The notes: a model not told the origin generated them from the letters alone. 64,000 nucleotides of DNA from Candidatus Eiseniibacteriota bacterium (GCA_043809585.1 JBDROZ010000069.1:1-64000), one strand, 5' to 3'; shown: positions 11,865 to 26,888, counted from the first letter of the stretch. Numbers and translations are program-made.

Positions 11865-14390
11865 TCAGTAGTACAGCTCGATCAGGAAGGGGAACTCCCG
11901 ATCCTCGGGGTTGGCCAGGCACGCTTCGCGGAGCGCCTCGAGGCCGCGCGGGTGGTCGCCGGCGAGCCGGTGACGGAGGCTCTCCGTCAGCAGCCGGTTC
12001 CCGCGAACGAACCTCGCCATCCTCTCCGGGTCGCCGATATCCCGGAAGACCCGGTCCACATCGCCGCGGTTCTCCATGAGGAACGACAAGTTCCGGCCGA
12101 TGTTCTCCTCGTTCAGGCAGGCCGCGTCGAAGAACTCGGTGTAGGAGCGGTCGTCCGAATTGATGCCGCTCCCGGTTCCGAGCTCTCGGATCGTCTCGCC
12201 GTCGAGCATGAGGGTCGCCGCCAGGTGGTAGGGGTCGGCGTAGAAGTGCGGGTCAGGGCCGACGGCGGAGACGTTCGCGGACCACTCGTCAAAGGGGATC
12301 GAAACCGGCCCCCGGGACCCGAGAAGCACCGCGTGGTAGTGGCCGAGCCAGACCGCGCAGTTCGGGAATTCGGACCGGAAGGTGGCGATGAGGCCGAGAA
12401 AGTCCTCGGTGCGCAGTTTGTGGAGCGGGAGATACTGGGAGACCATCCCCCCGGGGTTCAGCCGTGCCTTGCATAGGGCGAAGTACTCTTTCGTGTAGAG
12501 ATTCCCCGAGCCGAGGATCGGGTGGGTCGGATCGCACGAGATCAGGTCGTAGGTCTTCTCCGTCCGCCTGAGATAGTGCCTGCCGTCGCCCGGGATCAGC
12601 GCCAGCCTCGGGTCGTCCTCGACGCCCCGGTTCAGGTCCCGGTAGTGGAAGGCCGCGTCGAGGAGGCCGGGAACGAGCTCGACGCACTCGATCGACTCCA
12701 CCTCCGGATGGGAGGCGATGGCGGATGTCGTCACGCCGATGCCGAACCCGATGACGAGCGCGTCCCGGCACTCGAGGCCGAGAAAGAAGGGAAGGTGCCC
12801 CACCATCTTCACCACCTTGACGGCGTCGTAGCTCGAGCCGATCACGGCGCTGTTGTTGACGTAGGTCTGTTTCGTCCCCCCCCGTCCCCGCTCACGCCCG
12901 ACCGAGAGCGTCCCCTCCACCGACTCCCGGTAGAAGAGGACCTCATACCCGAAACGGCTGAACGAGGGGGGAAGAATCCTTACGGGCGGCAGGAAGAGAA
13001 TGAGAGCCACGAGGAGGGTGGCGACGCCGTAGCCCGCGGCCCGGAGTACCGGCGAGCGCCGGGAGTTCCCCAGGCGGAGGATGAAAACCGCGGCGACCGT
13101 CAAGAGCAGGAGAACCGCGAGCACCGATCGGGCGGCGCCGAGCAGGGGCAACAAGACGAAAGCCGCGAGGACCGGGCCGATCACCGCTCCGATCGTGTTG
13201 ACCGTGAGGACCCGCCCGACGTCTTCGCCGATGCGCCGTCGATCTTCGCTCGCCATGCGACAGGCGAGGGGGAAGGCGTAGCCGGAAAAGAGAGCGGGCG
13301 GGAAGACGACGATCAGGGAGACTACCAGGGGAAGCAGGAAGGTCCGGACCATGGGGTCGGAGAGGGGGGCCTGGAAGGGGAAGAGGATGAGCCGGGGGAG
13401 GTCGACAAGAAGGAGAAGGCCGGCCGCCGTGGATGCCCCGAGAAGAACGAGAACACGGAGCATCGACGCCGGATGGTCTTCGATCGCGGGGCCCCGGCAC
13501 CGGAAGAAGGCGCTCCCCGTGAAGAGCCCGAGGACCACGAGGGAGGAGACGAGGGCGAAGGTGTAGCTCGTGTTTGTCAGGTAGACGCGAAACACCCGCA
13601 TCCAGAGCACCTGCAGGGCGAGGAGGGCGAGGCCGCAGGCGAAGGTTCCGGTGAACGCAATGGACCGCGAGACGGAACCGCCCGGCTCTCGAATTCCCGG
13701 GGCCCGGCCGGCCTCGGTCTTCTCCACGGGCGGCGCGCTCCGGGCGCTCTCCGGAACCGCCCGCCCCGGCCTGGTCGCCAGCAAGAGCCCGAGGGCGAGG
13801 TCGACGGCCACGGCGAGGGCCATGGTGTTCCGGAGGCCGAGGGTTCCGAGCAGGAGAAAGCCCGCCGCGAGACCCCCCGCGGCGCTCCCGAGGGTCTCGA
13901 GCGCGTAAAGCCGGCCGAGCCCGGCGGGGATCGAACCGCCGCCACCGATCGAGATGGCGCTGGCCACCGGGAACATTCCGCCCATGAAGAGGGCGGGGAG
14001 AAAGAGAAGGGCCGCGGCGAGTAGGAAGACGATCGCCTCGATCGCCGGCGGCGGCAGGCCGGGCGCGAGCGCGCCGTAGAGGACGGGGAGGACGCCGGTG
14101 ACGAGAATCGAGGCGAGGGCGCCGAGAAAGCCGGTACCCGCGAGGAGAAGCGCGAGAAGCCGGGCCGGCCGGGCCGTCCGGTGGACCGCACGCCCCCACA
14201 ACCAGGCCCCTCCCCCGAACCCGGCCATGAAGGAGGCGAGAACGATCGTGGACGCCGTGACGGTCGATCCGAGAACGAGGGAGAGAAGGCGGTTCCAACC
14301 GACCTCGTAGAGGAGAAACGAAAACCCGGCGAGAAAGACGACGAGATTGATCGTCACGGGCCGCCCGTGGTTGTCCCCTGCCTTGCTCAT
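11865..14390 (-). CDS. Membrane-fused spermidine-synthase-like protein
   Basis: Two multi-TM repeats (LLYEVGWNR, LYALETLGS) plus ALVIGFGIG, VELVP, GDGRHYL and YDLISCD. Confidence 0.85.
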   Translation of the reverse strand: MSKAGDNHGRPVTINLVVFLAGFSFLLYEVGWNRLLSLVLGSTVTASTIVLASFMAGFGGGAWLWGRAVHRTARPARLLALLLAGTGFLGALASILVTGVLPVLYGALAPGLPPPAIEAIVFLLAAALLFLPALFMGGMFPVASAISIGGGGSIPAGLGRLYALETLGSAAGGLAAGFLLLGTLGLRNTMALAVAVDLALGLLLATRPGRAVPESARSAPPVEKTEAGRAPGIREPGGSVSRSIAFTGTFACGLALLALQVLWMRVFRVYLTNTSYTFALVSSLVVLGLFTGSAFFRCRGPAIEDHPASMLRVLVLLGASTAAGLLLLVDLPRLILFPFQAPLSDPMVRTFLLPLVVSLIVVFPPALFSGYAFPLACRMASEDRRRIGEDVGRVLTVNTIGAVIGPVLAAFVLLPLLGAARSVLAVLLLLTVAAVFILRLGNSRRSPVLRAAGYGVATLLVALILFLPPVRILPPSFSRFGYEVLFYRESVEGTLSVGRERGRGGTKQTYVNNSAVIGSSYDAVKVVKMVGHLPFFLGLECRDALVIGFGIGVTTSAIASHPEVESIECVELVPGLLDAAFHYRDLNRGVEDDPRLALIPGDGRHYLRRTEKTYDLISCDPTHPILGSGNLYTKEYFALCKARLNPGGMVSQYLPLHKLRTEDFLGLIATFRSEFPNCAVWLGHYHAVLLGSRGPVSIPFDEWSANVSAVGPDPHFYADPYHLAATLMLDGETIRELGTGSGINSDDRSYTEFFDAACLNEENIGRNLSFLMENRGDVDRVFRDIGDPERMARFVRGNRLLTESLRHRLAGDHPRGLEALREACLANPEDREFPFLIELYY

Positions 14391-14604
14391 CCTGAAGCTC
14401 CGCTGTTGAATCGGATCCGATCCTCAGGGTATCAGGAAAGAAGGCAAAAGCGAAACGGGGACCGGCGAGCGGCCGGCCTTAACCTCGATCTTTCATAAAA
14501 TCGAGGCAACGGACTTGGCCTCTCATATGGGATCTTCCCGGTGGTTATCCAAACAAACGACTTTGTCAAAGTCCATATAACACCCTATCTTGGTTTTGTG
14601 TTGT

Positions 14605-14636
14605 AGTGAGTGGGGTTTTGAAGAACCCCACTCACT
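14605..14636. terminator. Hairpin downstream of the cargo genes
   Basis: AGTGAGTGGGGTT-ttgaag-AACCCCACTCACT. Confidence 0.6.
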
Positions 14637-14653
14637 TTCCACAGCTATATGTA

Positions 14654-14875
14654 CTACGTATGCGCCGGATCGTCATCAAGGACGGGTTGTGGAACAAGAG
14701 GTTGAATGATCGTCCCCCATGCACCTTCCCACCAGTCCACGGCGTCACAACACGCGGGACACCAGTCGCAGAAGGCATCCACCACGTCCCACGGATCATT
14801 GTCTTCGTCGGCCGTCGCTGATTCCACGAAGAGAAGTAACGACCCCAGAAGTACCATCAGAAGGACCAATTTCAT
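14654..14875 (-). CDS. Small secreted acidic Trp/Cys-rich peptide
   Basis: MKLVLL signal peptide, CDWCPACC cluster; start overlaps the upstream ORF stop. Confidence 0.5.
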   Translation of the reverse strand: MKLVLLMVLLGSLLLFVESATADEDNDPWDVVDAFCDWCPACCDAVDWWEGAWGTIIQPLVPQPVLDDDPAHT

Positions 14876-15477
14876 AGCCCTACCCCCCCCTCTACGACGA
14901 GCCGAAATGGCTCGCCTCTATTCGACCATGGAATACCGTTTTGTGACAAAATCGGGACCTGTGCGAACAGATGAATTTGCCACGAGGGACCCTTCCCCTG
15001 GCCGAAGTATGCTCCCCGAAGGGCTTGAACCGGGTCGGTTCCCGGAATCCATTCCGTGACCGCGGTTCGAAGCATCCTTACTTTATTTCCCAGCGGGATC
15101 ACTTGCGGAGTCAGCCATCCTTTCTCATCCGCGTCATAGAGAACGGTAAACAAAGAATCGACTTTCCACTTTTCGCCCTGCCACTCGACATACCACTCAC
15201 CTGCAGGTATCTCAATGACATCACCTTCGACGGCGAATCGTAAAACCACGTGGTCGTTTACCAGTGGGTACATAACATGAGCGGCAAGTACGTAACTGAA
15301 CCTCATTAGTTGGTTCCCGTGATTTCTGTCGGGACCAAAACGCTTGCATCGTTCTTCGATGTACGACTCGTCGAACATGCCGAAGCAGGCCCATTTTCCT
15401 TCGAGATTCGTTTCTACCGTCACTGTTTGCGCCGCTACTTCACCCGCAAAAAGAAATACCAGAAGAACAAGCTTCAC
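14872..15477 (-). CDS. Secreted hypothetical protein
   Basis: AAGGAG RBS, GTG start, MKLVLL...VAA signal peptide. Confidence 0.6.
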   Translation of the reverse strand: MKLVLLVFLFAGEVAAQTVTVETNLEGKWACFGMFDESYIEERCKRFGPDRNHGNQLMRFSYVLAAHVMYPLVNDHVVLRFAVEGDVIEIPAGEWYVEWQGEKWKVDSLFTVLYDADEKGWLTPQVIPLGNKVRMLRTAVTEWIPGTDPVQALRGAYFGQGKGPSWQIHLFAQVPILSQNGIPWSNRGEPFRLVVEGGVGL

Positions 15478-15515
15478 CTTGTCTCCTTTTTACCTATGAC
15501 CATGAAAGATCAAGG

Positions 15516-15590
15516 TTAATCCGGCAAAAAAATCGCGCGGGCGTCAGCGATGTGCACCGGGATTCCCTGTCGGATTAAGGCTGAGGCTAG
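15516..15590. repeat. Short MITE-like repeat abutting the cassette
   Basis: TTAATCCGGC...GTCGGATTAA ends; shares its body with 9727-9775; followed by AGGCTAG. Confidence 0.6.
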
Positions 15591-15765
15591 AACCGGTTTC
15601 ACAACCTCCATTCTACTGCGATCGGCTGCAAGGCCCGGCGGCTGCGTACTCGGGTAAAAACGTCCTCAATGGCCTTCTTAGGCCACTTCCGGGCGTTTTC
15701 CCCCTTGATCCTTGCCGCCGGACCTTTCGCGCGATCTCGCGACGAAGGAGGTTGTGAAACCGATT

Positions 15766-16296
15766 CTAGCCACCCACCTCCCTCTTCAGGATCTGTTTCA
15801 TTATGGCGTTGTAGATCACGCACGGATCGACCGGCTTGGTAAGATAGTCGTCCATGCCGGCCGCCAGGCACCGTTCCTTTCCCTCCTTCTCGGGCACATT
15901 CGTGAGGCCGATAATCGGCACCCGGGGGTTGAGCACCCGGGAGTCCGGGTTCCGGATCGCCCGCGTCGCACCGGGCCCGTCGAGGCGTGGCATCTCCAGG
16001 TCCATGATGACGACTTCATATGGCTGGTATTGCAGGACGAGAAGGGCCTCGGCCCCGTTCATTACGCCCCGCGTCACGCAGCCGTGGGATTCGAGGACGT
16101 GACTGGTCATGCATCGGCTCAGACGGTTGTCGTCGACGACCAGGATCCGGACGCCCTTCAACGAGGATCGTCGCCGGGCACCGTTCGCCGCCTCGAACTG
16201 GCGGTTCGAACCGTCGACCATGTCCGGGCGGTCCTCCGGCGAAGATGGTCCGTTCTCCGCTCCGACAGGCTTCCCGCATTCCTCTTCAGTGTCCAT
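15766..16296 (-). CDS. Stand-alone response-regulator receiver (hybrid-kinase-type REC)
   Basis: ILVVDDN, VVIMDLEMPRLDG, IIGLT, AAGMDDYLTKP. Confidence 0.9.
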   Translation of the reverse strand: MDTEEECGKPVGAENGPSSPEDRPDMVDGSNRQFEAANGARRRSSLKGVRILVVDDNRLSRCMTSHVLESHGCVTRGVMNGAEALLVLQYQPYEVVIMDLEMPRLDGPGATRAIRNPDSRVLNPRVPIIGLTNVPEKEGKERCLAAGMDDYLTKPVDPCVIYNAIMKQILKREVGG

Positions 16297-16942
16297 TTGA
16301 ATCCTCTCGCTCGTTGATCATCGACCGCAGAGTGATGTCTCTTACGGCCCCGAGGCCACGGCCGGCCGCCGACGTTTCGGGAGTGCCGACGATCCGCCAG
16401 GGAGGCCCGGCCGGGAAACACGGATCGGACGGGCCGTGGTTTCCCGTTCGGGCAAGGTGTATTTCCAGGGTCGAGAGTCGAAGATACAGGGGGGTAGAAA
16501 AGGTGCCGGCCCGGGCCAGTCTCGAAAGATCCTCCGAAGTCGAGCTGATCACGCGTCGAATGGCCGGGCGTCCCCCGAACTCTTGATCGGGCTGCTTCTC
16601 GACGAGGTCGAGAAGAAACAGCTGGGCCCACCTCTCGAGGAGATGAACGTGGCTCAGAAAGAGGACGGCCGGCTTGTCCCGGAGAACGGTCCGGAGGGCA
16701 CCCGGGCTCATCCGGTTCAGACGCTGGCCATCGAGGATCATACGGTCTTCCTTCGGATAGGCGTTCTGGAAGAACCGGACTCCCGCCAACACGTTCCCGG
16801 TCAGCAAGACGTTCGCCCGGCAGCGGAGAGCGCGGGACAGTTCCATCATGACCTCCCCCGAGCGCCCTACCTGGTGCGCGGGCATGGGGGTGCGACCGGC
16901 CGGGACTCCGCCGTCCGCGACGATGTAGTCCATTCGATTCAC
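16286..16942 (-). CDS. Degenerate sigma54-activator-like AAA domain protein
   Basis: NVLLTG, LFLSHVHLL...Q..LL, and RVISSTSEDL...GTF...LYLRLS resemble the bEBP core. Walker A Lys, Walker B DE, GAFTGA and HTH are absent. Confidence 0.65.
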   Translation of the reverse strand: MNRMDYIVADGGVPAGRTPMPAHQVGRSGEVMMELSRALRCRANVLLTGNVLAGVRFFQNAYPKEDRMILDGQRLNRMSPGALRTVLRDKPAVLFLSHVHLLERWAQLFLLDLVEKQPDQEFGGRPAIRRVISSTSEDLSRLARAGTFSTPLYLRLSTLEIHLARTGNHGPSDPCFPAGPPWRIVGTPETSAAGRGLGAVRDITLRSMINEREDSNGH

Positions 16943-17028
16943 GTCGGTTTCTTCCTCCCTTCGTGGTTCTCCCGTTCCGGGGCGTAAAAAGGCCAGGACC
17001 GGGACCGCGCCCGCTCCGTGGCCGTACT

Positions 17029-17253
17029 CTATGGATGAGGTTGGGTCGGGTCGTCAGGCTCCGGCCACGGCGGGGGGGACGAAGATAAGTCCCCGGTTTC
17101 CGCGTGGGCGATGGCCACACCCAAGAAACCCGTCGCCCTGCCGTCGGGAGCGAAGACCGATTCCTGGAGGGGAAGAGTCAGAAGCCAGAGGACCACGACG
17201 GTGACGAAGAAGAGGGGAGAGACTCGCCGCACGATCTGCCGGTTTCGTTCCAT
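17029..17253 (-). CDS. Small exported/membrane peptide with Pro/Asp-rich tail
   Basis: AGGAGG RBS, basic N-terminus, hydrophobic helix, AIAHA, then ETGDLSSSPPPWPEPDDPTQPHP. Confidence 0.65.
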   Translation of the reverse strand: MERNRQIVRRVSPLFFVTVVVLWLLTLPLQESVFAPDGRATGFLGVAIAHAETGDLSSSPPPWPEPDDPTQPHP

Positions 17254-17302
17254 AGAATGCCTCCTAATCCGCCGACAAGATCTTGCCGGCTCTTACAGGG
17301 AG

Positions 17303-17318
17303 AGCAAGAACCGTGCGA
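17303..17318 (-). promoter_or_regulatory. Sigma54 (-24/-12)-like promoter
   Basis: TCGCACG-gttc-TTGCT versus consensus TGGCACG-N4-TTGCW; one mismatch, at a conserved G. Confidence 0.5.
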
Positions 17319-17407
17319 ATCTTCACCGAGGTCGAACAGCACAACCCACTATCGGACAACAAGATGTGCCGACATTCGATCCGCGAAAGCGGGGAGTTCT
17401 TCTATGG

Positions 17408-17487
17408 TCGTACGATCGTACGAATTCAAGGGGTTTCCATGCCTTCCGGGGTGACACGTTGTCAACCACTCGTACGATCGTACGAGT
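17408..17487. promoter_or_regulatory. Tandem palindromes, candidate bEBP upstream activating sequences
   Basis: TCGTACGATCGTACGA at 17408-17423 and 17470-17485 (the second extends to a 20-bp perfect palindrome, 17468-17487); 62-bp spacing. Confidence 0.65.
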
Positions 17488-20400
17488 TCATCGGGGGAGG
17501 CAATGGGGGGCGGAATCGATCGAGCCGGTACTTCTTGATCTTCTTCCGCACCGTGCTTTCGTGAATGCCCAGGTGCCGGGCCGCCTTCACATTGTTCCAG
17601 CCCATCCGCGTGAGCGTCTCCCGAAGGATCTGGCTTTCTACTGCGTAGATGTCGCGGAGAAGATCCCGATCTTCCGTTTCGGGGGGCCCTTCGGGGACGC
17701 CGCTTCCGGGGAAGGCGCCCCGCACCTCTTCGGGGAGATGGGCGGGCTCGATGCTGCCCCCCTCGCAGAAGACGACGGCCCGTTCGATCACGTGGTCCAA
17801 TTCCCGGACGTTTCCGGGCCATGAGTACGAGAGGAGCAGGGCCTCAGCGGCGCCCGATATCGTCCGAATCGCCTTGCGATTCCGCCTACGGTGCGCCTCG
17901 AGAAAGCGGCCGGCCAGTTTCGGGATGTCTTCCCGGCGGTTCCGGAGAGGCGGGATCTCGACGGCGACCCCGTTGAGTCGGTAGTAAAGATCGTTCCGGA
18001 ACAATCCCTCCGCGACGAGGGCGGCCAAATCCCGATTCGTCGCGGCGATCAATCGGACATTCGCCCGGAGGGTCTCCGTCCCGCCGAGCCTTTCGAACTC
18101 GCCCTCCTGCAAGACCCGGAGCAGTTTCCCCTGGGCCGGGAGGGGCATGTCGCCGATCTCGTCAAGGAGTAGGGTGCCCCGGTGGGCCCGCTCGAAAATC
18201 CCGGCCTTGCGCTCCCCGGCGTCGGTGAAGGCCCCCTTCTCGTGCCCGAAGAGCTCGTCCTCCACGAGCGTCGGAGCGAGGGCGGAGCAGTTCAATCGAA
18301 GGAACGGTTCGGCTCCGCGTGGACCCTCCCGGTGGAGAAAGCCGGCTCCCATCCCTTTCCCCACTCCCGTCTCACCGAGGAGCAGCACGGCGATGTCGCT
18401 CTTGGCCACGACGCGGAGTTTTCGAAGGACCATTCTCATCGCGTTGCTTTCCGCGACGATTTCCTGCACTTCGTCCCGTCTCCCCACTTCTTCCAGCAGG
18501 AGGGTGTTCTCCCGCTCGTATCGATCGAGAAGGCGCGCGTTCTCGATGGCGATTCCCGCCAGATCGGTCAGCCCTCTCAGGAAGGAGAGGTCGTTCGCGG
18601 AGAAAATGTTCGCCGACCGGCTGCTGTCCAGATAGAGAAGGCCGAGCGGCATCCCCTTCGACCGGATGGTGCTGCAGATGGCGGAGAGGATATTGTAGGT
18701 GGCGACACTCTCGGCCCCCCGGAATCGGGGATCGGCGAGGACGTTGCCGGCCACCAGCGGCTCTTCGCTCCGCTCCGCCTCCTGGAACAGGGTCCGGCTG
18801 AAGCGGGTCACGTCCTGGAGATCCTCCCCCTCGAGAGATCGCGCCGCCCGAGGGACCAGTTCGCCGTCCGGCCCCCGCAGGAGAATGAGGCCCCGGTCCG
18901 CCCGAAGGTGGTCGATCGCCTGATCGAGGGTGTGATCGAGGATGGCCCGGGTGTCCCGCAGGGAGTTGATCACCTCCGCGATGCGGCAGATCGCGCGGAA
19001 GCCCTCGCCGATCTCCCCCTCTCTTCCCGTGAGGAGATCTTTCGCCTCGGCCAGTGCCGGCGGCGGCGTGACCACCCGCACGAGGTCGTAGAGGGATGAG
19101 GCCTCCTCGACGTATCCTCGGGCGCGCCTCTGCCGGCCCTGCCTCGCCGAGACCGCGCCGAGACAGGTCAGGGCTTCGGCCAGATCGAGGCGTGCGCCGA
19201 GGTCCCGGGCGGTCCGCGCCGCATCCCGGAAGAGGGGGGTGGCCGACGACGGGTTTCCCCGGCCCTCTTCGTACCGGCCCCGGAGGAGCGCCGCCCGGCA
19301 GGAGATCCATGGGGACTCGCCGCGCCGCACCGTCGCCCCGAGCCGTTCGAGGTAGGGCCGGGGCGTCCCGCCGTCCGGCCGGTCGAGGGCGACCCGGGCG
19401 AGGAGGATCAGGGTCTCGGCAACCATCATGCGCTCTCCCCGCTCTTCGAAGTGAGTGAGCACCTCTTTCAGTTTATCCTCGGCCTCGTCGAACTTCCGGC
19501 GGAGGTGATCGAGGCGGGCCCGGGATCGTAGAAGCTGGGCCTGGTATCTTCCGCCGTAGCGCTCGCCGAGAACGGATTCGGCTTCTTCCAGAAGCGATTC
19601 CGCCTCCTCCGGCTCCTCCCGGGCGACGTGGGTGAGCGCGAGGAGATGAAGGGCGTCGAAGAGGCCGAACGGATTCCGGCCCATCCGGGCGAGGCCGAGT
19701 CCGCGGGTCAGCATGTCGAGGGAGAGATCGAGCCTCCCTCGTTCCCGCGCCATCTGGCCGAGGGAGAGAAGGGCCCGGACCTGTCCGCCCTCGTCGCCGA
19801 AATCCTCCTGGAACTCGAGGGCCTGTTCGAGGACCCGCGAGGCCTCCTCCGACTTACCCGATCGAAAGAGCACCCGGCCGAGATCCTCGAGGACCCGGGC
19901 CTCCTCGAGCCGGTTTCCGCTTTCCCGGACACGGGTCAGCGCCGTTTCGAGGAGTTTTCGAGCTTCCTCGAGCTTCCCGGTCCAGAGACGGACGAGGGCG
20001 AGGTTCGAAAGCGCCCCGACCGCTTCGGAGGGAGCCGTACGCTCGAGGGAACGGATCGAGCGTTCGAAGAGCTTGCCCGCTTCTCGCCAGTCGCTCTCGT
20101 AGAAGGCGACCGCCCCGAGCCGGTTGAGCAGGTAGCCGCGCAATGCCGATCCCCGGCTCTTACCGATCAGCGACAGGCCGCGGCTGAGATGGTCCCTCGC
20201 CGCTTGCGGCTTCCCCGCGGAGACGGCGAACCATCCGAGATCGTAGTGAATCGTCGCCTCCTCGCTCCGCGGCATTCGCGCGCCCGACAACAGGAGATCC
20301 CCGAGGGTCCGCTCCGCCCGTTCGTGTTCCCCTTGATAGAAACGGATCCACGCCTCGAGACGGCGGGCCTGGCGGACCGGGGGTCCCCCTTCCCGCTCGT

Positions 20401-22675
20401 CCCGGAAGAGGCGAAGAAGAAGGCGGATCGCCGCGAGGGCGGCCGCCGGGTCCCCCTCCCGGTAGCGAAGGCGGGCGAGTTCGGAGAGAATCCGGGCCCG
20501 TTCGGCCCGGGGGGCGCCGGCGCCGAGGCGGAGCGATTTCCGGTAGAGATCCGCCGATTCCCGAACCAGGGCCATCCGCTCCAAAAAAGAAGCCGCCTTC
20601 ACGAGGGCCTTCCGTGCCGCGCCCGGGCATCCCGCCCTCTCCCAATGGTGGGCCGCCGTGACGAATGGCGCCCCCTCTCCCTCTTTCGCCTCCCGGACAG
20701 TGAGTCTCGCCGCCATGCGATGGATCTTCTTCCGCCGGCTTTCGGGAATCATGCCGGCCAGGGAGGTCCGGGCCTCGTCGGAAACCGGACCGTACGCCTC
20801 GCCGTCGCCGCTCCCCTCCAGACGGACGAGCTTCATGTCGAGAAGGGGGGCGATCACCTCCCGGAAATCCTCTGCGGGGAGGGAGAGAAGGCGGCGCAGA
20901 AAGCGGGCCTCCCGCGGCACGGGAGAGAGGCCGATCGCCCCGCCGAGGTCCCTCGTCCCGGGCTCGAGCCCGAGCATGCGGGGGTCCCTCCTCGGCCGGT
21001 CCCCGGCACGCTCCTTCGGGGAGAAGCCCTCGGCGAGACGAAATGTGCCGTACCTCTTTCGAACGTGACCGCGGCGCACCCATTCCTCGACCAGCGATCG
21101 GAGGAGTCCGGGATTGCCGCCCGACCGCTCGGCGACGACCCGGGCGAGCTCGGGGGATTTCTTGCCGGGGCCGAGAAATCCCCGGAGCCACTCCTCGATC
21201 TCCTCTCCCGTGAGAGGGGGAAGGTACTCGACGCGCGCCCTTCCTTCCGCCTCGAGCCGTTTCCAGAGCGAGCCCCGCCGTCCGAGTTCGGCCTCTTTCA
21301 GGGCGAAGACGAACCGCGATCGGAGCGGGGAGCGCCGGGTGAGTAGGAAGACGAAGTAGCGGAGGGAAGCCTCGTCGAGACGGTCCGCGTCGTCGATGAT
21401 GACGACAGGGTCGCCGTGGGACCGCGGGCGGATCAGTTCGATCCGGTCATTCCATCGATCCCGGAGGCGACCGAAGATCGCCGAGTCCCCCGATCCGTCT
21501 CGTTCGCGCAGAAGATCGTGGGGAATCTCATGCCCCGGCCCTTTCCCGAAGGAGATCGGGAAGCCGCGCTCCCCTGCCGCCTCGAAAAGCCGGCGGGCCC
21601 CGTCGTAGGGGGGAGACGGGCCCGTCGCCGGCCCTTCGATCGCGAGGACGGCGCGCCCCTCGAGCCGGAGATCGCCGGCCATCCGCCGGAGAAAGCGCGT
21701 GCGGCCCGAACCGGAAGAGCCGGCGACAAGCAGGCAGGACGGATTCTCCGGATCGAGCCAGCGGCGAACCCGGTCCTCGATCTCCCTCCGGCCGACGTAA
21801 GGGGGGACCGACGGGACGACGACGGGAGCCGGCCGCCTTCTCTTGCCCTCGAGAATCTCCATGAACCGGGCCGCCGAGCGGGGCCGGTCGTTCGGGTCTT
21901 TTTCCAGCAATCGCTCGATCGCTTCCCGAAACGCGGGGGGATGGGCGCTCCGGGCGGGGAACCGTTCCCGGGCAGGAGTCAGGAGGTGATGCCGGGCGAG
22001 CTCGAGGGGGTCCCCCGTGAAGAGCGGCTTTCCGGTCAGCACTTCGAAGAGCAGGACACCCAGGGAATAGAGGTCGGACCGGTTGTCGACCTCCTCGCCT
22101 CGGATCGCTTCCGGGGCGAGATAGGCGGGGGTGCCGATGATCGTCCCGAGAGTCCCCTCGCGCCGGAATATCGCCGGCGCGAGGTCCGTCAACTGAAGCT
22201 CCCGGATGGCCCGGGGGGACGCACGAAAGAGGAGATTGCCCGGCTTGAGGTCCCCGTGGACGTGTCCGCGCTCGTGCAGGAAGGCGAGCGGTTCCGCGAC
22301 GCGCCCGGAGAACTCCGGAAAATGGCGCGCCACCTGCTTCTGCACCCACTCGCGGGGGTCCGTCTGATCCACGTAGGGGGAAACGGCGTAGTACGTCTCG
22401 TTGCCCAGTCTCCCACAATCGAGAATCGGGCTCAATCCCGGGTGGGAGAGTTCCCGCCGAATCCGCACGTCTTCGAGGAAGAGGTTCCGGAAGCGTTCCG
22501 TGGCGCCGGGGCCGACCGTCTTGACCACGCACCGCGAGTCGTCCGCTTCGCGCCTGGCGAGCACGACCTGACCGTGATCGCTCGACTTGAGCGTGCGCTC
22601 CGCCCGGAAACCGGCCGGCAGATCGGTATGCTTGAATTCGAGTCTGGCCATGATTCGCGGATCCCTGTCGGTCAT
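17462..22675 (-). CDS. Ser/Thr kinase - STAND-type NTPase - TPR - GAF - sigma54 activator - Fis HTH fusion
   Basis: HGDLKPGN, GTPAYLAPE and DLYSLG (kinase); GSSGSGRT and IIDDAD (NTPase); TPR array; GAF (GLLYLDS); GETGVGKG, GAFTDA, LLDEIG and WPGNVREL; AARHLGI HTH. Confidence 0.92.
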   Translation of the reverse strand: MTDRDPRIMARLEFKHTDLPAGFRAERTLKSSDHGQVVLARREADDSRCVVKTVGPGATERFRNLFLEDVRIRRELSHPGLSPILDCGRLGNETYYAVSPYVDQTDPREWVQKQVARHFPEFSGRVAEPLAFLHERGHVHGDLKPGNLLFRASPRAIRELQLTDLAPAIFRREGTLGTIIGTPAYLAPEAIRGEEVDNRSDLYSLGVLLFEVLTGKPLFTGDPLELARHHLLTPARERFPARSAHPPAFREAIERLLEKDPNDRPRSAARFMEILEGKRRRPAPVVVPSVPPYVGRREIEDRVRRWLDPENPSCLLVAGSSGSGRTRFLRRMAGDLRLEGRAVLAIEGPATGPSPPYDGARRLFEAAGERGFPISFGKGPGHEIPHDLLRERDGSGDSAIFGRLRDRWNDRIELIRPRSHGDPVVIIDDADRLDEASLRYFVFLLTRRSPLRSRFVFALKEAELGRRGSLWKRLEAEGRARVEYLPPLTGEEIEEWLRGFLGPGKKSPELARVVAERSGGNPGLLRSLVEEWVRRGHVRKRYGTFRLAEGFSPKERAGDRPRRDPRMLGLEPGTRDLGGAIGLSPVPREARFLRRLLSLPAEDFREVIAPLLDMKLVRLEGSGDGEAYGPVSDEARTSLAGMIPESRRKKIHRMAARLTVREAKEGEGAPFVTAAHHWERAGCPGAARKALVKAASFLERMALVRESADLYRKSLRLGAGAPRAERARILSELARLRYREGDPAAALAAIRLLLRLFRDEREGGPPVRQARRLEAWIRFYQGEHERAERTLGDLLLSGARMPRSEEATIHYDLGWFAVSAGKPQAARDHLSRGLSLIGKSRGSALRGYLLNRLGAVAFYESDWREAGKLFERSIRSLERTAPSEAVGALSNLALVRLWTGKLEEARKLLETALTRVRESGNRLEEARVLEDLGRVLFRSGKSEEASRVLEQALEFQEDFGDEGGQVRALLSLGQMARERGRLDLSLDMLTRGLGLARMGRNPFGLFDALHLLALTHVAREEPEEAESLLEEAESVLGERYGGRYQAQLLRSRARLDHLRRKFDEAEDKLKEVLTHFEERGERMMVAETLILLARVALDRPDGGTPRPYLERLGATVRRGESPWISCRAALLRGRYEEGRGNPSSATPLFRDAARTARDLGARLDLAEALTCLGAVSARQGRQRRARGYVEEASSLYDLVRVVTPPPALAEAKDLLTGREGEIGEGFRAICRIAEVINSLRDTRAILDHTLDQAIDHLRADRGLILLRGPDGELVPRAARSLEGEDLQDVTRFSRTLFQEAERSEEPLVAGNVLADPRFRGAESVATYNILSAICSTIRSKGMPLGLLYLDSSRSANIFSANDLSFLRGLTDLAGIAIENARLLDRYERENTLLLEEVGRRDEVQEIVAESNAMRMVLRKLRVVAKSDIAVLLLGETGVGKGMGAGFLHREGPRGAEPFLRLNCSALAPTLVEDELFGHEKGAFTDAGERKAGIFERAHRGTLLLDEIGDMPLPAQGKLLRVLQEGEFERLGGTETLRANVRLIAATNRDLAALVAEGLFRNDLYYRLNGVAVEIPPLRNRREDIPKLAGRFLEAHRRRNRKAIRTISGAAEALLLSYSWPGNVRELDHVIERAVVFCEGGSIEPAHLPEEVRGAFPGSGVPEGPPETEDRDLLRDIYAVESQILRETLTRMGWNNVKAARHLGIHESTVRKKIKKYRLDRFRPPLPPPMNSYDRTSG

Positions 22676-23192
22676 CGCTATCCCGGGGCGGCCGGGGCGA
22701 TCACCACCCTACTCTAATTGTAGCACTCTTCCCGGTCCCCTTCCCGTCCGGACCCTCCGGGAGGGCCGGATGCAACTCTTTGATCGTCGATGGTTTAGGT
22801 CGCCCGCGATCTTCTGTCGACCAAGCCCCCGGGTGGGGCGCTACCCCCGGGGGGGCGTCGCCGGAGGGAGGAGAGGGCGGAGCCTACCCCCCGACGGGAC
22901 GATGGAAATCAGAGCCCCTCTCCCCTATAATGATAGCATTCTTGGGTGTGCAAATTCTGACCATATTCGTATAGACCGACCAAACCCCGGCCGAGATAGC
23001 CCGAGGACCGCGAGGTCCGACGGCGAACCGTAAGGCCCAAGGCGGCGCGCACCGTCCACGCCTGGAGTTGATCGCACGTCTCGTTTCGCGATCGTCGTGA
23101 TCCCGGAAGGAGGCTCGGTGGAGGAATGCCCCGTGTCCGGCGAGGGCCCGCGGCGTTTCCTCTCGCGACGTCTATCCAGAAAGGACCGCCTC

Positions 23193-26100
23193 ATGAAGCC
23201 CCATCCCCTGTTCCCGGCAGCACTCCTCTTCGCCGCTCTGCTCCTCGCCACCTCCGGCTTCGCCGTGACCCACACGTACACGGACGGCTGGGCCGACGCC
23301 GGTCTCCATGTCACGGGACAAGGCGTCGCCGGCGTGGATCTCACCTTCTCTCTCACCGTCTGGGACCAGGGGGAGATGGAACTCGAGGGGCGGTCGATGC
23401 AGACCGTGGGGGTTCCCGGCCTGCCGCTGCCGGGGGAGGCGGGCGCACCGAACCTACCGGGGATGAGCCGGTTCATCGCCGTTCCGAATGGGGCGGAGGT
23501 CTACGTCCGCATCGTCGACTCGAGGACCGAGACCTATGCGGACGTCGAGATCGCCCCGGCACCCCGCATCCCCCGGGAGACGGAGGACGGGCCGCTGGAG
23601 TATCCGAGAAACCAGTCGATCTACGATTCGGACGAGTTCTATCCCGGCGCTCCGGTCACCCTCTCCGCCCCCCGGTTCGTGCGCGGCGTGGAATCGCGGA
23701 TGCTCGGGATCGCCCCCTTCCAGTACAACCCGGTCACCCGGGAACTGGTCGTCTACCGGGACCTTCGGGTGGAGGTGACCTTCGAGGGGGGTACGGGCGT
23801 TTTCGCTGAAGAGCGGCTCCGGAACCGCTGGTGGGAACCGATTCTCGCCGATCTCTTCGCCAACTACGAGTCGATCGGCAAGGCACCGCCGGCCCCCCGA
23901 TCCGACTCGCGCACCGACGACTTCGAGTACGTCATCATCTGCCCGGACGATCCGGCCTTCGTCGCCTGGGCGGACAGCCTGAAGCGGTGGAGGACCGAGC
24001 AGGGCATCCGGACCGGCGTGGTGACCACCGCGGACATCGGCGGCAACACGATCCCCGCGATCGAGAGCTACCTGAACAACGCCTACATGACCTGGTCCAT
24101 CCCCCCGTCCGCGGCGCTCCTCCTCGGCGACTACGGAACGACCGGCGCCCGGATCACCTCGCCGATCTGGAGCAGCTACTGCCTGTCGGACAACATCTTC
24201 GCGGACGTCGACGGCGATGATCTACCGGACATCGTCCTCGCCCGGATCACCGCCCAGAACGAGGCGGACCTCGCCAACATGATCGGGAAGATGCTGGGCT
24301 ACGAGCGGCAGCCGCCGACGGCCGCCGATTTCTACTCCAGCCCGATCATGGCGGGGGGATGGCAAACCGAGCGCTGGTTCATCCTCTGCGAGGAAGTGCT
24401 GTACGGGTACTTCGCGAACGTCCTCGGCAAGAACCCCGTGAGGGAGTACGCGATCTACTCGGGGACGCCGGGGTCGGTCTGGTCGACCGCGACCAACACC
24501 GCCACGGTGGTCAACTACTTCGGCCCGAACGGCCTCGGGTACATCCCCCAGACGCCGGCGCACCTGACCGACTGGGGGGGCAACGCCACCCGGATCAACA
24601 GCGACATCAACCGCGGGTCCTTCATGCTCCAGCATCGCGACCACGGGGCGAACGACGGCTGGGGCGAGCCGTACTACGTGACCGGCCACCTCTCCGCCCT
24701 GTCGAACGACGAGCTGACCTTCGTGTTCTCCGTCAACTGCCTGACCGGCCAGTTCAACCTGACCGGAAACTCCTTCGCCGAGGCGTTCCATCACCACGCC
24801 CGGGGAGCGCTCGGGATCATCGCCGCCACGGAAGTCTCCTACTCCTTCGTGAACGACGCGTACGTCTGGGGGATGTACGACTACATGTGGCCCGACTTCG
24901 ATCCGGGCTACGGCATCCCCGGTCCGGCCCAGGTCCTGCCCGCCTTCGCCAACGCGTCGGGCAAGTACTACCTCGAGGCGTCCTCCTGGCCGTACAACAC
25001 TACCGAGAAGACGGTGACCTACCACCTCTTCCATCATCACGGCGACGCTTTCATGACGGTCTACTCGGAGGTTCCGGAGAACTTGACCGTCTCCCACGAC
25101 GGGGCCCTTCTCTCGGGGATGGACTACTTCACCGTCACCGCCGACGGGGGCTCGTGGATCGGCCTCTCCGCGGGGGGCGAGTTCCTCGGCGCCGCTTCGG
25201 GAACGGGATCGCCGGTGAACATCACGATCCCGCCGCTGGTTTCGGGAGAGGAGCTTCTCGTGACGGTCACGAAGCAGGACCACTACCGCTACGAGCACGC
25301 CGTGACCGTCGTCCCGCCGGACGGCCCCTTCCTGATCTACGAAGGCCACTCGATCGCCGACGGGGGGGGCGACAACGACGGCGCGGCGGACGAGGGGGAG
25401 ACGATCGATCTCGAAGTGACCCTCGAGAACGTCGGAACCGAGACGGCGATCGGGGTCATCGGGGTCCTTTCGACCGCCGATCCCCACGTCACCATAATCG
25501 AGGACAATGAGAGCTTCGACGACATCCCCGCCGGCGGATTCGGCACGACCCTCTCCCCCTTCGTCGTCGAGATCCACGGCGACGCCCCGGACGGGCACTC
25601 CGCCGAGTTCCTGCTCTCCATCGCCATCGGCGATTCGGTGCGGGAGGCCTCATTCTCCGTTCCGATCGATGCGCCGCTCTTCACGGTCGCGGGGCTCCTG
25701 ATCGACGACATCTTCGGCGGCGACGGGAACGGCAACGTGAACGCCGGAGAGACGGTCAACTTCGAGGTGGTGCTCGCGAATGAAGGACACTCGGACGCGG
25801 AAATCACGAGCGCCGTCCTCACGAGCACCGAAGGGGACGTGACGATCCTGGGAGGCGACGGCGAGTGCGGGGCCCTGCCGGTCTCCGGGACCGGGTGGAT
25901 GGGGACTTTCTCCGCTTCCGTGGCCGTCGGCTGCCCCGAGCCGGCCAATCTCGCCTTCCATCTCGAGGTCACCGCCGAGAACGGATTCGTCTCCTCCCTC
26001 GATTTCGACATGCCCGTGGGGGGCTGGTTCGACGACATGGAGGAATACAGGGCGTGGAGCGTGGGCGCGCCGGACGACGACGCGTCGAGCGGGATCTGGG

Positions 26101-26888
26101 CAAGGCTCGACCCGATCGGCACGCTGCAGGACGGCCATCCCATCCAGCCGGAAGACGACCACACGCCGGGCGCCGGGACTCATTGCTACGTGACGGGGAA
26201 CGGCACCATCGGCGGGACCGCCGGCGAGAACGACGTGGACGGCGGCAAGACCACCCTCTTCACGCCCGTCTTCGATCTGTCCGACGCGGTGGGCGCCACC
26301 ATCGGCTACTGGCGGTGGTACTCCAACTCGTGGGGGAACGATCCGGACAACGACTGGTGGGACGTCGACGCGACCGCCGACGGCATGAGCTGGGAGAGCC
26401 TCGAGCACACCTCCCAGACGATCGCCGCGTGGACCGAACAGACATTCGATCTGGCGGCATACGTCCCCCTGACCGATCAGGTGCAAATCCGCTTCGTCGC
26501 CTCCGACGAAGGGAGCGGTTCCCTGGTCGAAGCGGGGGTGGACGACTTCATCCTCGCGGCGGTCCGTGTCGTCTACACGGACGTGGAGGGGGCGGAATCG
26601 GGGCCGCCGGCGAAGCTCGCCCTCGGCATGAACACGCCGAACCCGTTCAATCCGACCACGACGATCCACTTCGACCTCCCGAAGCCGGCCGTGGTGGAGC
26701 TCTCGATCTACGACATCACCGGCCGCCGCGTGGCCACGCTGGTCAGCGGGAAGCTGGAGGCGGGCCGCCACGAGGCGGTCTGGACGGGACGGGGCGTGGA
26801 CGGACAGGCGGCGGGGAGCGGCCTCTACTTCAGCCGCCTCAAGGCGGACGGCGAGACGAAGACCCGGAAGATGCTGCTCTTGAAATAA
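23193..26888 (+). CDS. Gingipain-like C25 cysteine peptidase with propeptide, Ig-like repeats and FlgD-type C-terminal domain
   Basis: GAPNLP propeptide, PFQYNP, LLLGD, HRDHG and SVNCLTG (His/Cys dyad), PNPFNP tail; signal peptide. Confidence 0.88.
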   Translation: MKPHPLFPAALLFAALLLATSGFAVTHTYTDGWADAGLHVTGQGVAGVDLTFSLTVWDQGEMELEGRSMQTVGVPGLPLPGEAGAPNLPGMSRFIAVPNGAEVYVRIVDSRTETYADVEIAPAPRIPRETEDGPLEYPRNQSIYDSDEFYPGAPVTLSAPRFVRGVESRMLGIAPFQYNPVTRELVVYRDLRVEVTFEGGTGVFAEERLRNRWWEPILADLFANYESIGKAPPAPRSDSRTDDFEYVIICPDDPAFVAWADSLKRWRTEQGIRTGVVTTADIGGNTIPAIESYLNNAYMTWSIPPSAALLLGDYGTTGARITSPIWSSYCLSDNIFADVDGDDLPDIVLARITAQNEADLANMIGKMLGYERQPPTAADFYSSPIMAGGWQTERWFILCEEVLYGYFANVLGKNPVREYAIYSGTPGSVWSTATNTATVVNYFGPNGLGYIPQTPAHLTDWGGNATRINSDINRGSFMLQHRDHGANDGWGEPYYVTGHLSALSNDELTFVFSVNCLTGQFNLTGNSFAEAFHHHARGALGIIAATEVSYSFVNDAYVWGMYDYMWPDFDPGYGIPGPAQVLPAFANASGKYYLEASSWPYNTTEKTVTYHLFHHHGDAFMTVYSEVPENLTVSHDGALLSGMDYFTVTADGGSWIGLSAGGEFLGAASGTGSPVNITIPPLVSGEELLVTVTKQDHYRYEHAVTVVPPDGPFLIYEGHSIADGGGDNDGAADEGETIDLEVTLENVGTETAIGVIGVLSTADPHVTIIEDNESFDDIPAGGFGTTLSPFVVEIHGDAPDGHSAEFLLSIAIGDSVREASFSVPIDAPLFTVAGLLIDDIFGGDGNGNVNAGETVNFEVVLANEGHSDAEITSAVLTSTEGDVTILGGDGECGALPVSGTGWMGTFSASVAVGCPEPANLAFHLEVTAENGFVSSLDFDMPVGGWFDDMEEYRAWSVGAPDDDASSGIWARLDPIGTLQDGHPIQPEDDHTPGAGTHCYVTGNGTIGGTAGENDVDGGKTTLFTPVFDLSDAVGATIGYWRWYSNSWGNDPDNDWWDVDATADGMSWESLEHTSQTIAAWTEQTFDLAAYVPLTDQVQIRFVASDEGSGSLVEAGVDDFILAAVRVVYTDVEGAESGPPAKLALGMNTPNPFNPTTTIHFDLPKPAVVELSIYDITGRRVATLVSGKLEAGRHEAVWTGRGVDGQAAGSGLYFSRLKADGETKTRKMLLLK

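Follow-up and report, generated by a model that had tools for sequence, protein, structure and literature searches.

RRNPP regulators, among them PlcR with its peptide PapR, are compact proteins of Firmicutes that join a helix-turn-helix (HTH) or phosphatase part to tetratricopeptide repeats (TPR), and their peptides are imported by oligopeptide permease. PknK and MalT are STAND regulators whose features served us for comparison, and FleT is an AAA+ protein not known to have a DNA-binding domain. In Cereibacter (Rhodobacter) sphaeroides, FleQ, a master bacterial enhancer-binding protein (bEBP), switches on the operon that encodes FleT, and a FleQ/FleT complex is then formed (PMC7277832). The present work concerns a locus at positions 15,766 to 22,675 of a 64,000-nucleotide stretch of DNA from Candidatus Eiseniibacteriota bacterium (GCA_043809585.1 JBDROZ010000069.1:1-64000), the whole of which is called the window below. 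On its minus strand the locus carries a giant regulator gene, two palindromes, a sigma-54 promoter-like site and the genes of a small peptide, a degenerate bEBP-type AAA+ protein (here the dead AAA+ protein) and a receiver.

The C-terminal 500 residues of the regulator (GAF, sigma-54 AAA+, lid and HTH_8) resemble enhancer-binding proteins of the NifA, FhlA and NorR type, and its GAFTDA contact loop is shared with OrpR (DVU2106) of Desulfovibrio vulgaris, a proven activator, and is counted among the tolerated variants of GAFTGA (PMC4641369). Unlike NifA, FhlA, NorR and OrpR, it has about 1,200 extra N-terminal residues (kinase, STAND NTPase and TPR), its putative operators are situated where the gene that encodes it ends, and the −24 element reads CG. 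These N-terminal 1,200 residues match Pkinase, AAA_16 and TPR_MalT, as in the PknK/MalT regulators, whereas the output part is a sigma-54 AAA+ domain with a Fis-type HTH and not a LuxR-type HTH, and the STAND Walker A motif is GSGRT. Gene order and promoter fit an operon-encoded partner as in FleQ/FleT, and the predicted partner likewise lacks a DNA-binding domain; it differs from FleT in having no Walker A lysine, Walker B, GAFTGA loop or, in the family at this locus, lid, and so cannot be a co-activator in its own right. With PlcR-PapR and the RRNPP family the locus shares a TPR regulator, palindromic boxes and an adjacent small, predicted-secreted peptide with a conserved C-terminal end. 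It differs from them in phylum, size, sigma factor and architecture, and lacks a linked importer; the regulator is not an RRNPP member and may at most work in a similar manner.

We lean towards reading the locus as a self-contained, dedicated sigma-54 cassette of Candidatus Eisenbacteria, a classical enhancer/sigma-54 design with an undescribed class of regulator and an undescribed set of targets. Its cis-regulatory core, operators plus sigma-54 promoter, is the part that we regard as probable from conservation and motif content, and a role of the dead AAA+ protein as partner in the activator ring is put forward tentatively, with more doubt than belief. All the minus-strand elements listed in the original prediction, made from this DNA alone, were found where it had placed them (open reading frames (ORFs), Pfam and motif scans; Table 1).

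The regulator and its predicted control region

The assembly that holds the window (contig C69) comprises 4.24 Mb in 123 contigs and is 97.5% complete. It is coded G000 in a comparison set of ten genomes of the phylum Candidatus Eisenbacteria (G000-G009), all of them metagenome-assembled and mutually related; the source names of two orthologues put the genome in this phylum. Of the sequencing runs listed, none of RNA and only three of DNA, from one study, contain part of the stretch. An orthologue of the regulator, whole or as contig-end fragments, was found in nine of the ten genomes. Identity ranged from 56% to 31% over near-full length in G004, G003, G005, G002, G006 and G009, the gene was fragmented in G007 and G008, and G001 gave generic AAA+ matches only, with no regulator orthologue.

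The regulator has no membrane segment, and all of its domains listed in Table 1 exceed the Pfam cut-offs. In an alignment of the orthologues, K52, HGD142, N147 and D164 of the Ser/Thr kinase are invariant, and the kinase looks active; the STAND Walker A motif has Arg where Lys is usual, and either residue is found among the relatives. The sigma-54 AAA+ domain carries GETGVGKG as Walker A and LLLDEIGD as Walker B, and its GAFTDA loop is present in 3 of the 19 sigma-54 contact loops found in G000. With both Walker motifs in a sigma-54 AAA+ domain, a tolerated loop, an HTH and nearby inverted repeats, the protein has the make-up of a bEBP. About 40 nt upstream of its ATG we noted an extended −10-like box, TGCTACAAT, at 22717-22725 (minus strand), a possible sigma-70 promoter of the regulator gene, which a consensus promoter scan requiring a −35 did not pick out.

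Table 1. Features of the locus, with positions counted from the first letter of the window.
Feature	Position	Strand	Remarks
Giant regulator gene	17462..22675	minus	1737 aa; the database record has a 1729-aa form, which starts at an ATG 8 codons further in
Pkinase	21878-22579	minus	residues 33-266; Pfam, 99.6 bits
STAND AAA_16	21326-21796	minus	residues 294-450; Pfam, 38.6 bits (cut-off 32.6)
TPR_12 / TPR_MalT	~19385-20086	minus	residues 864-1097; Pfam; TPR_MalT 55.5 bits (cut-off 45)
GAF	18545-18955	minus	residues 1241-1377; Pfam
Sigma54_activat (PF00158)	17960-18460	minus	residues 1406-1572; 207.3 bits (cut-off 20.2)
AAA_lid_14	17717-17944	minus	Pfam
HTH_8	17528-17641	minus	residues 1679-1716; Pfam, 38.9 bits
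Distal palindrome TCGTACGATCGTACGA (TCGTAC-GATC-GTACGA)	17470..17485		centre at about −185 from the inferred start; within the last codons of the regulator (SYDRT)
Proximal palindrome TCGTACGATCGTACGA	17408..17423		centre at about −123 from the inferred start
−24/−12-like element TCGCACGGTTCTTGC	17318-17304	minus	14/15 consensus positions; exact GG/GC spacing; CG for the −24 GG
Shine-Dalgarno AGGAGG	17260..17265	minus	6 nt before the peptide ATG; AGGAG invariant in 5 loci
Peptide gene	17029..17253	minus	ORF, 74 aa; tail ends DDPTQPHP
Dead bEBP-type AAA+ gene	16286..16942	minus	218 aa; alternative ATG at 16933 gives 215 aa
Stand-alone receiver gene	15766..16296	minus	176 aa; Response_reg, 82.3 bits; overlaps the AAA+ gene by 11 nt
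Hairpin repeat	15587..15769		183 nt, near-perfect; abuts the receiver stop codon; outside the system

The architecture of the regulator is common and annotated, and is not new. As many as 142 proteins reach E <= 1e-30 to it, and about 108 of the 120 listed relatives (counted by eye), which come from Polyangia/Sorangium, Planctomycetota and other groups, carry both Pkinase and Sigma54_activat. Their database names are 'sigma 54-interacting transcriptional regulator', 'Nif-specific regulatory protein' and, at JGI, 'serine/threonine-protein kinase PknK'. Our literature search found no paper on the kinase-STAND-TPR-GAF-sigma-54 architecture or on sigma-54 in Eisenbacteria; the passages of PMC8538405 that mention the expansion of enhancer-binding proteins and kinases in Sorangium say nothing further on the architecture. 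The original prediction had not recognised the arrangement as a described system; this stands for the target operon, which appears to be undescribed in print, and has to be given up for the regulator. Among metagenome contigs, 110 pattern matches to the regulator contained no relative, and a search of such contigs with the regulator alignment gave 80 loci, which were set aside, all of them matching only the generic AAA+/HTH part (from about residue 1185 on).

The two palindromes are identical over 16 bp. At two mismatches or fewer the window contains 2 matches where 0.03 are expected, and a count of 2 was attained in none of 100 shuffles. Across the full 4.24 Mb of the assembly TCGTAC-N4-GTACGA has only two sites, both at this locus, the nearest other 16-mer being two mismatches away. 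We compared the operator/promoter region at seven loci, and in every one of them two or three CGTAY-N4-RTACG inverted repeats lie downstream of the regulator. The half-sites are kept while the 4-nt spacers vary (GATC, GCCC, AAAA, GAAT, GAAC), which points to recognition by a protein and not to an RNA hairpin, and the AATTCGTAC flank of the proximal palindrome is invariant in five genomes. The palindromes are thus a probable operator, unique in the genome. Scanned across the phylum at one mismatch, the operator gave too much background for a regulon to be defined (in G000, 16 per strand against 4 for the control). At one locus, G004:C25 (L014), some 340 extra bases separate the regulator stop from the first palindrome; they consist of a segment of some 100 nt, duplicated and with many GGTACCTGATACC and GGTATCGGATACC motifs, that the sister genome G007 lacks.

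In sigma-54 promoters the GG of the −24 element is nearly invariant. The consensus has been given as TGGCAC-N5-7-TTGCT (PMC12316311). The sole mismatch of TCGCACGGTTCTTGC is the first G of that GG; the −24/−12-like site claimed originally does exist, with the reservation that its −24 reads CG. Taking the usual 12-nt distance, transcription would start near 17292. The weight of TCGCACGGTTCTTGC as a promoter comes from its conservation among relatives: CGCAC-N5-YTGC was found at five of the seven loci, in four genera (G000, G007, G004, G003, G005), with the centre of the proximal operator 111.5, 112.5, 112.5, 109.5 and 108.5 bp from the −12 C, within spacers that have otherwise diverged. When the spacers of these five loci were aligned with MAFFT, which misplaced the G003 and G005 promoters, the only invariant blocks were AATTCGTAC..GTACG and AGGAG.

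Genome-wide, GGCAC-N5-TTGC has 26 sites, compared with 10 at N4 and 11 at N6, and many of the 26 precede a Shine-Dalgarno sequence and an exported protein; this excess at the N5 spacing indicates that sigma-54 is in use in the genome. The rpoN gene is present (G000:C72; PF04552, 213 bits). A second CGCAC-N5-TTGC site, on contig C115, was set aside; a TATAAT-like box stands beside it, and palindromes are absent. Between the regulator and peptide genes the minus strand showed no sigma-70-like −35/−10 site.

The contact loop of the regulator can be set beside the promoter at each locus. GAFTDA is found in G000, its 77% relative, G004, G007 and G005, together with CGCAC-N5-YTGC (the 77% relative not being assessable for the promoter), and GAFSGA in G003 with the same element. 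In G009 the loop is GAFTGA and the promoter-like site is of the GG-N10-GC kind (CGGTCTCGCGATTGCA), at a distance of 130.5 bp from the operator. In G002 and G006 the loop is destroyed (RARTGGPDG, RARAGGRDG) and no promoter-like site is present, a co-loss that would fit functional coupling of the two. The proposal that the giant protein activates the adjacent operon through the palindromes and a sigma-54 promoter thus gains support from conservation, from rpoN and from this co-loss. The homologues, which could have lacked them, keep both the peptide gene and the palindromes, and the promoter at five of seven loci at a fixed distance.

The peptide, dead AAA+ and receiver genes

In the 74-aa peptide, which is predicted to be exported, a basic N-region is followed by a hydrophobic 15-mer (mean Kyte-Doolittle 2.52) and an acidic, Pro-rich tail. 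Eight loci could be assessed for it (G000, G004, G007, G003, G005, G002, G009 and G006; G008 was left out because its contig begins too late), and all eight have a small ORF between the regulator and the dead AAA+ gene, built of the same three parts: the N-region is basic, the hydrophobic 15-mers have mean Kyte-Doolittle values of 2.05-2.89, and the tail is acidic and rich in Pro and Gly. The C-terminal motif DPxxPHP is found at seven of them, while the G009 peptide ends DPTGPGRP (DPxxPxRP); D68, P69, P72 and P74 are invariant among the seven aligned peptides. The codons of the motif differ synonymously between genomes, and the peptide genes of G004 and G007 show 9 synonymous and 6 nonsynonymous codon differences out of 79. 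Synonymous variation within a conserved motif argues that the peptide gene is real and constrained at the amino-acid level. A search of the ESM Atlas gave no usable match for the peptide by features and, by structure, only generic single-helix models. A 320-aa ORF at 16158-17120 (minus strand), rich in Arg and Pro, was discarded as an out-of-frame artefact.

Small peptides were also seen outside the phylum. Downstream of six regulators of similar size we found two small exported Pro-rich peptides, three large exported proteins and one unrelated gene. At G031:C54 (L020) and G013:C11 (L053) the order is giant regulator, exported peptide, receiver-containing protein. These peptides (66 aa in L020, with FADPSDIPPP, and 47 aa in L053, with FADDDPPP) share FAD(D/P)..PPP(I/V)..PPPP, and a canonical TGGCAC-N5-TCGC site precedes the G031 peptide gene.

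The 218-aa protein encoded next matches Sigma54_activ_2 (PF14532; 34.7 bits) and Sigma54_activat (PF00158; 29.2 bits), weakly and above threshold. It reads ANVLLTGN in place of the Walker A motif GETGxGK and lacks the GAFTGA loop, the Walker B DE, the lid and the HTH; with its catalytic motifs and HTH absent it is derived from a bEBP and is not one. Its predicted model is the alpha/beta subdomain of a bEBP AAA+ domain, with a mean predicted local distance difference test (pLDDT) score of only 63.1 and a core (residues 28-163) mostly above 70. Foldseek matched this core to ZraR (1ojl), NtrC1 (1ny6), FleQ (6jdi) and PspF (2bjv) with a probability of 1.00, and MuB was also among the best matches. 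The G009-type form, of about 260 aa, keeps GESGVGKE and the lid, without loop and Walker B.

A profile of the dead AAA+ protein scored 177-288 bits once per genome in nine of the ten genomes, other bEBPs reaching at most 63.4 bits. The best score in G001 was 53.1 bits, so that the regulator and the dead AAA+ gene co-occur in the same nine genomes and are both absent from G001. The family is rare: at E <= 1e-30 we found 8 cluster representatives among 1.84 billion, about a dozen short proteins scored above 105 bits before scores fell to the generic bEBP level, and a word-based search returned 11 proteins at E <= 1e-10. Searching genome contigs with the single protein gave 59 pattern matches and no relative among them.

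The receiver keeps all the phospho-transfer residues, namely the DD pocket, the phospho-acceptor Asp (IMDLEMP), the Thr (GLT) and the Lys (TKP). In a comparison of the third gene that leaves out G003, it is a receiver in G000, G004, G007 and G008 (4/9 genomes, two genera), in G005 and G002 a 329-335-aa protein that matches no Pfam family and of which G006 has a partial copy, and in G009 a 143-aa protein. As to the predicted operon of peptide, dead AAA+ and receiver genes, therefore, the first two members are conserved and the third is present in four of the nine genomes only.

Extent of the cassette and neighbouring sequences

None of the genes that flank the locus, a C25 peptidase, a spermidine-synthase-like gene and two small ORFs, turned up at the loci of the relatives, which marks off the cassette as the conserved unit. 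This unit consists of the regulator, the sites, the peptide and the dead AAA+ gene, and the receiver lies outside it.

The hairpin that abuts the receiver gene looks like a mobile repeat of the miniature inverted-repeat transposable element (MITE) or repetitive extragenic palindrome (REP) kind. Other contigs of the genome carry more than 20 further copies (94-99% identity), several being located at a contig end. Folding of 15575-15780 gave a minimum free energy of −126.7 kcal/mol (z = −11.9), and the hairpin could possibly serve as the operon terminator. The receiver C-terminus is about equal in length to those of the relatives' receivers. No Rfam match was found in 14000-23200.

Beyond it, 14400-15575 has a low GC content (0.51-0.55, compared with ~0.65-0.70 around it) and holds two overlapping minus-strand ORFs, both starting MKLVLL and both without Pfam match: one of 201 aa (14872-15477) and one of 73 aa (14654-14875), Cys/Trp-rich and ending DDDPAHT. 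Neither was found in the relatives' loci or elsewhere among the top matches. An 841-aa ORF at 11865-14390 (minus strand) has a spermine/spermidine-synthase domain at residues 528-655 (64.1 bits), and its hydrophobic N-terminus suggests a long membrane-spanning region. Divergent from the regulator, 23097-26888 (plus strand) encodes a 1263-aa gingipain-like Peptidase_C25 with a propeptide and a C-terminal FlgD_ig/Por_Secre_tail sorting domain; its C-terminal domain of about 75 aa recurs in many genes of the genome.

Proposed mechanism, alternatives and significance

We propose that the regulator, a cytoplasmic protein, would integrate signals through its Ser/Thr kinase, its STAND NTPase switch with the TPR arm, its GAF domain and its sigma-54 AAA+ motor. 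Its Fis-type HTH would bind the TCGTAC-N4-GTACGA repeats at about −123 and −185, where its own gene ends, and the AAA+ ring would spend ATP on opening a sigma-54 promoter whose −24 is deliberately weak (CG for GG). A single dedicated operon would thereby be driven, encoding the exported peptide (DPxxPHP), the dead AAA+ protein without DNA binding and, in two genera, the receiver. Since the dead AAA+ protein should be able to do little but bind AAA+ modules, it may enter or cap the ring of the regulator as a feedback reminiscent of FleQ/FleT, and its loss of catalytic motifs suggests damping or re-targeting rather than co-activation. The receiver may add a two-component input, and the peptide may be an extracytoplasmic output or signal. 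The DNA binding, the export and the protein interactions invoked here, like the start site, are predictions read from sequence.

Several observations weigh against this reading. The nine cassette genomes are kin within one small phylum. By itself TCGCACGGTTCTTGC is not above chance in the window: one-mismatch promoter sites number 4 there where 1.47 would be expected, and a count of 4 came up in 8 of 100 shuffles. Two of the seven loci are without the CGCAC element, and the −24 reads CG, a form of which the genome shows no excess (6 CGCAC-N5-TTGC sites). Nothing resembling a terminator separates the regulator from the peptide gene, so that read-through from the regulator gene is possible. The losses of loop and promoter are one evolutionary event in one genus, and sigma-54 dependence, as well as the start site, was inferred. 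As for the products, the receiver is swapped for unrelated genes in five of the cassette genomes, and the roles that we assign to the three proteins are putative.

Peptide autoinduction in the manner of PlcR-PapR, a feedback loop of the kind that the original prediction had suggested as possible, would come on top of the cassette rather than replace it. A processed form of the peptide would re-enter the cytoplasm, the TPR arm would bind DPxxPHP and the STAND switch would be turned on, giving positive feedback. Such is the logic of PlcR and PapR, and TPR domains do bind free C-termini. At all eight assessable loci the TPR regulator stands directly upstream of a small signal-peptide-like gene of which only the extreme C-terminus is conserved; that gene is the first under the regulator's own predicted operator and promoter, and the two regulators of the same architecture outside the phylum also precede small exported Pro-rich peptides. 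However, the regulator lacks a membrane segment and the peptide is predicted to be exported; neither an importer for the peptide nor a protease to process it is linked, the flanking genes are not conserved, and the phylum has sorting domains of the type IX secretion system (T9SS) type, so that two membranes would have to be crossed twice. We hold autoinduction to be unlikely, while giving it some weight. Its fuller form, autoinduction in diderm candidate phyla with the TPR arm reading the free DPxxPHP end and the dead AAA+ protein in the ring acting as built-in negative feedback, is a long shot.

Control independent of sigma-54 would keep the palindromes as operators and have the operon transcribed by read-through or with another sigma factor, the regulator acting as a repressor or as a sigma-70-type activator, for which TyrR and Rhodobacter NtrC are precedents. 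The CG at −24 and its lack of enrichment, together with the missing terminator, speak for it, and so do G002 and G006, which keep operators, peptide and AAA+ genes without loop or promoter, meaning that the cassette can persist uncoupled from sigma-54. Against this, 14 of 15 positions and the exact spacing recur in five genomes of four genera at 108.5-112.5 bp from the operator, the regulator retains all its AAA+ motifs and a tolerated GAFTDA loop, and the minus strand has no −35/−10 match. We therefore find such control distinctly improbable.

The peptide might instead be a regulatory nascent chain like SecM, MifM or VemP, whose Pro-rich C-terminus would stall the ribosome and tune translation downstream. 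Its signal- or transmembrane-like N-terminus, variable middle and short conserved P-H-P-stop end are hallmarks of arrest peptides, and a 13-15-bp stem could pair the last codons with sequence just past the stop. Nevertheless, the fold around the peptide stop is unremarkable (z = −0.23; equalled or bettered by 77 of 200 shuffles). Depending on the locus, the next gene overlaps the peptide gene or lies up to 87 nt away, which leaves room for no conserved structure sequestering the Shine-Dalgarno sequence, and in contrast to SecM, MifM and VemP there is no conserved stem and the downstream gene encodes a dead AAA+ protein, not a Sec or YidC factor. This makes arrest very improbable. That the genes are neighbours by descent only, with the palindromes as selfish or structural DNA in a genome rich in dispersed hairpin repeats, was already disfavoured and deserves next to no credence: the palindrome is not dispersed, both of its genome copies being at the locus, and genomes from two families of the phylum have kept the half-sites, the spacing and the gene set in spite of different flanks.

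Returning to the dedicated sigma-54 cassette, the locus gives an orphan family of regulators a candidate operator found nowhere else in the genome, a promoter that keeps a fixed distance from it and a complete regulon of a single operon, and with these the family can be tested in a heterologous host. The conserved CG at the position of the −24 GG is of interest to specialists. If true, the induction of a bEBP-type AAA+ partner that is catalytically dead would add a new means of regulating an activator ring. The tiny, predicted-exported peptide, with its conserved C-terminus, suggests that uncultured diderm phyla might possibly use peptide signalling.

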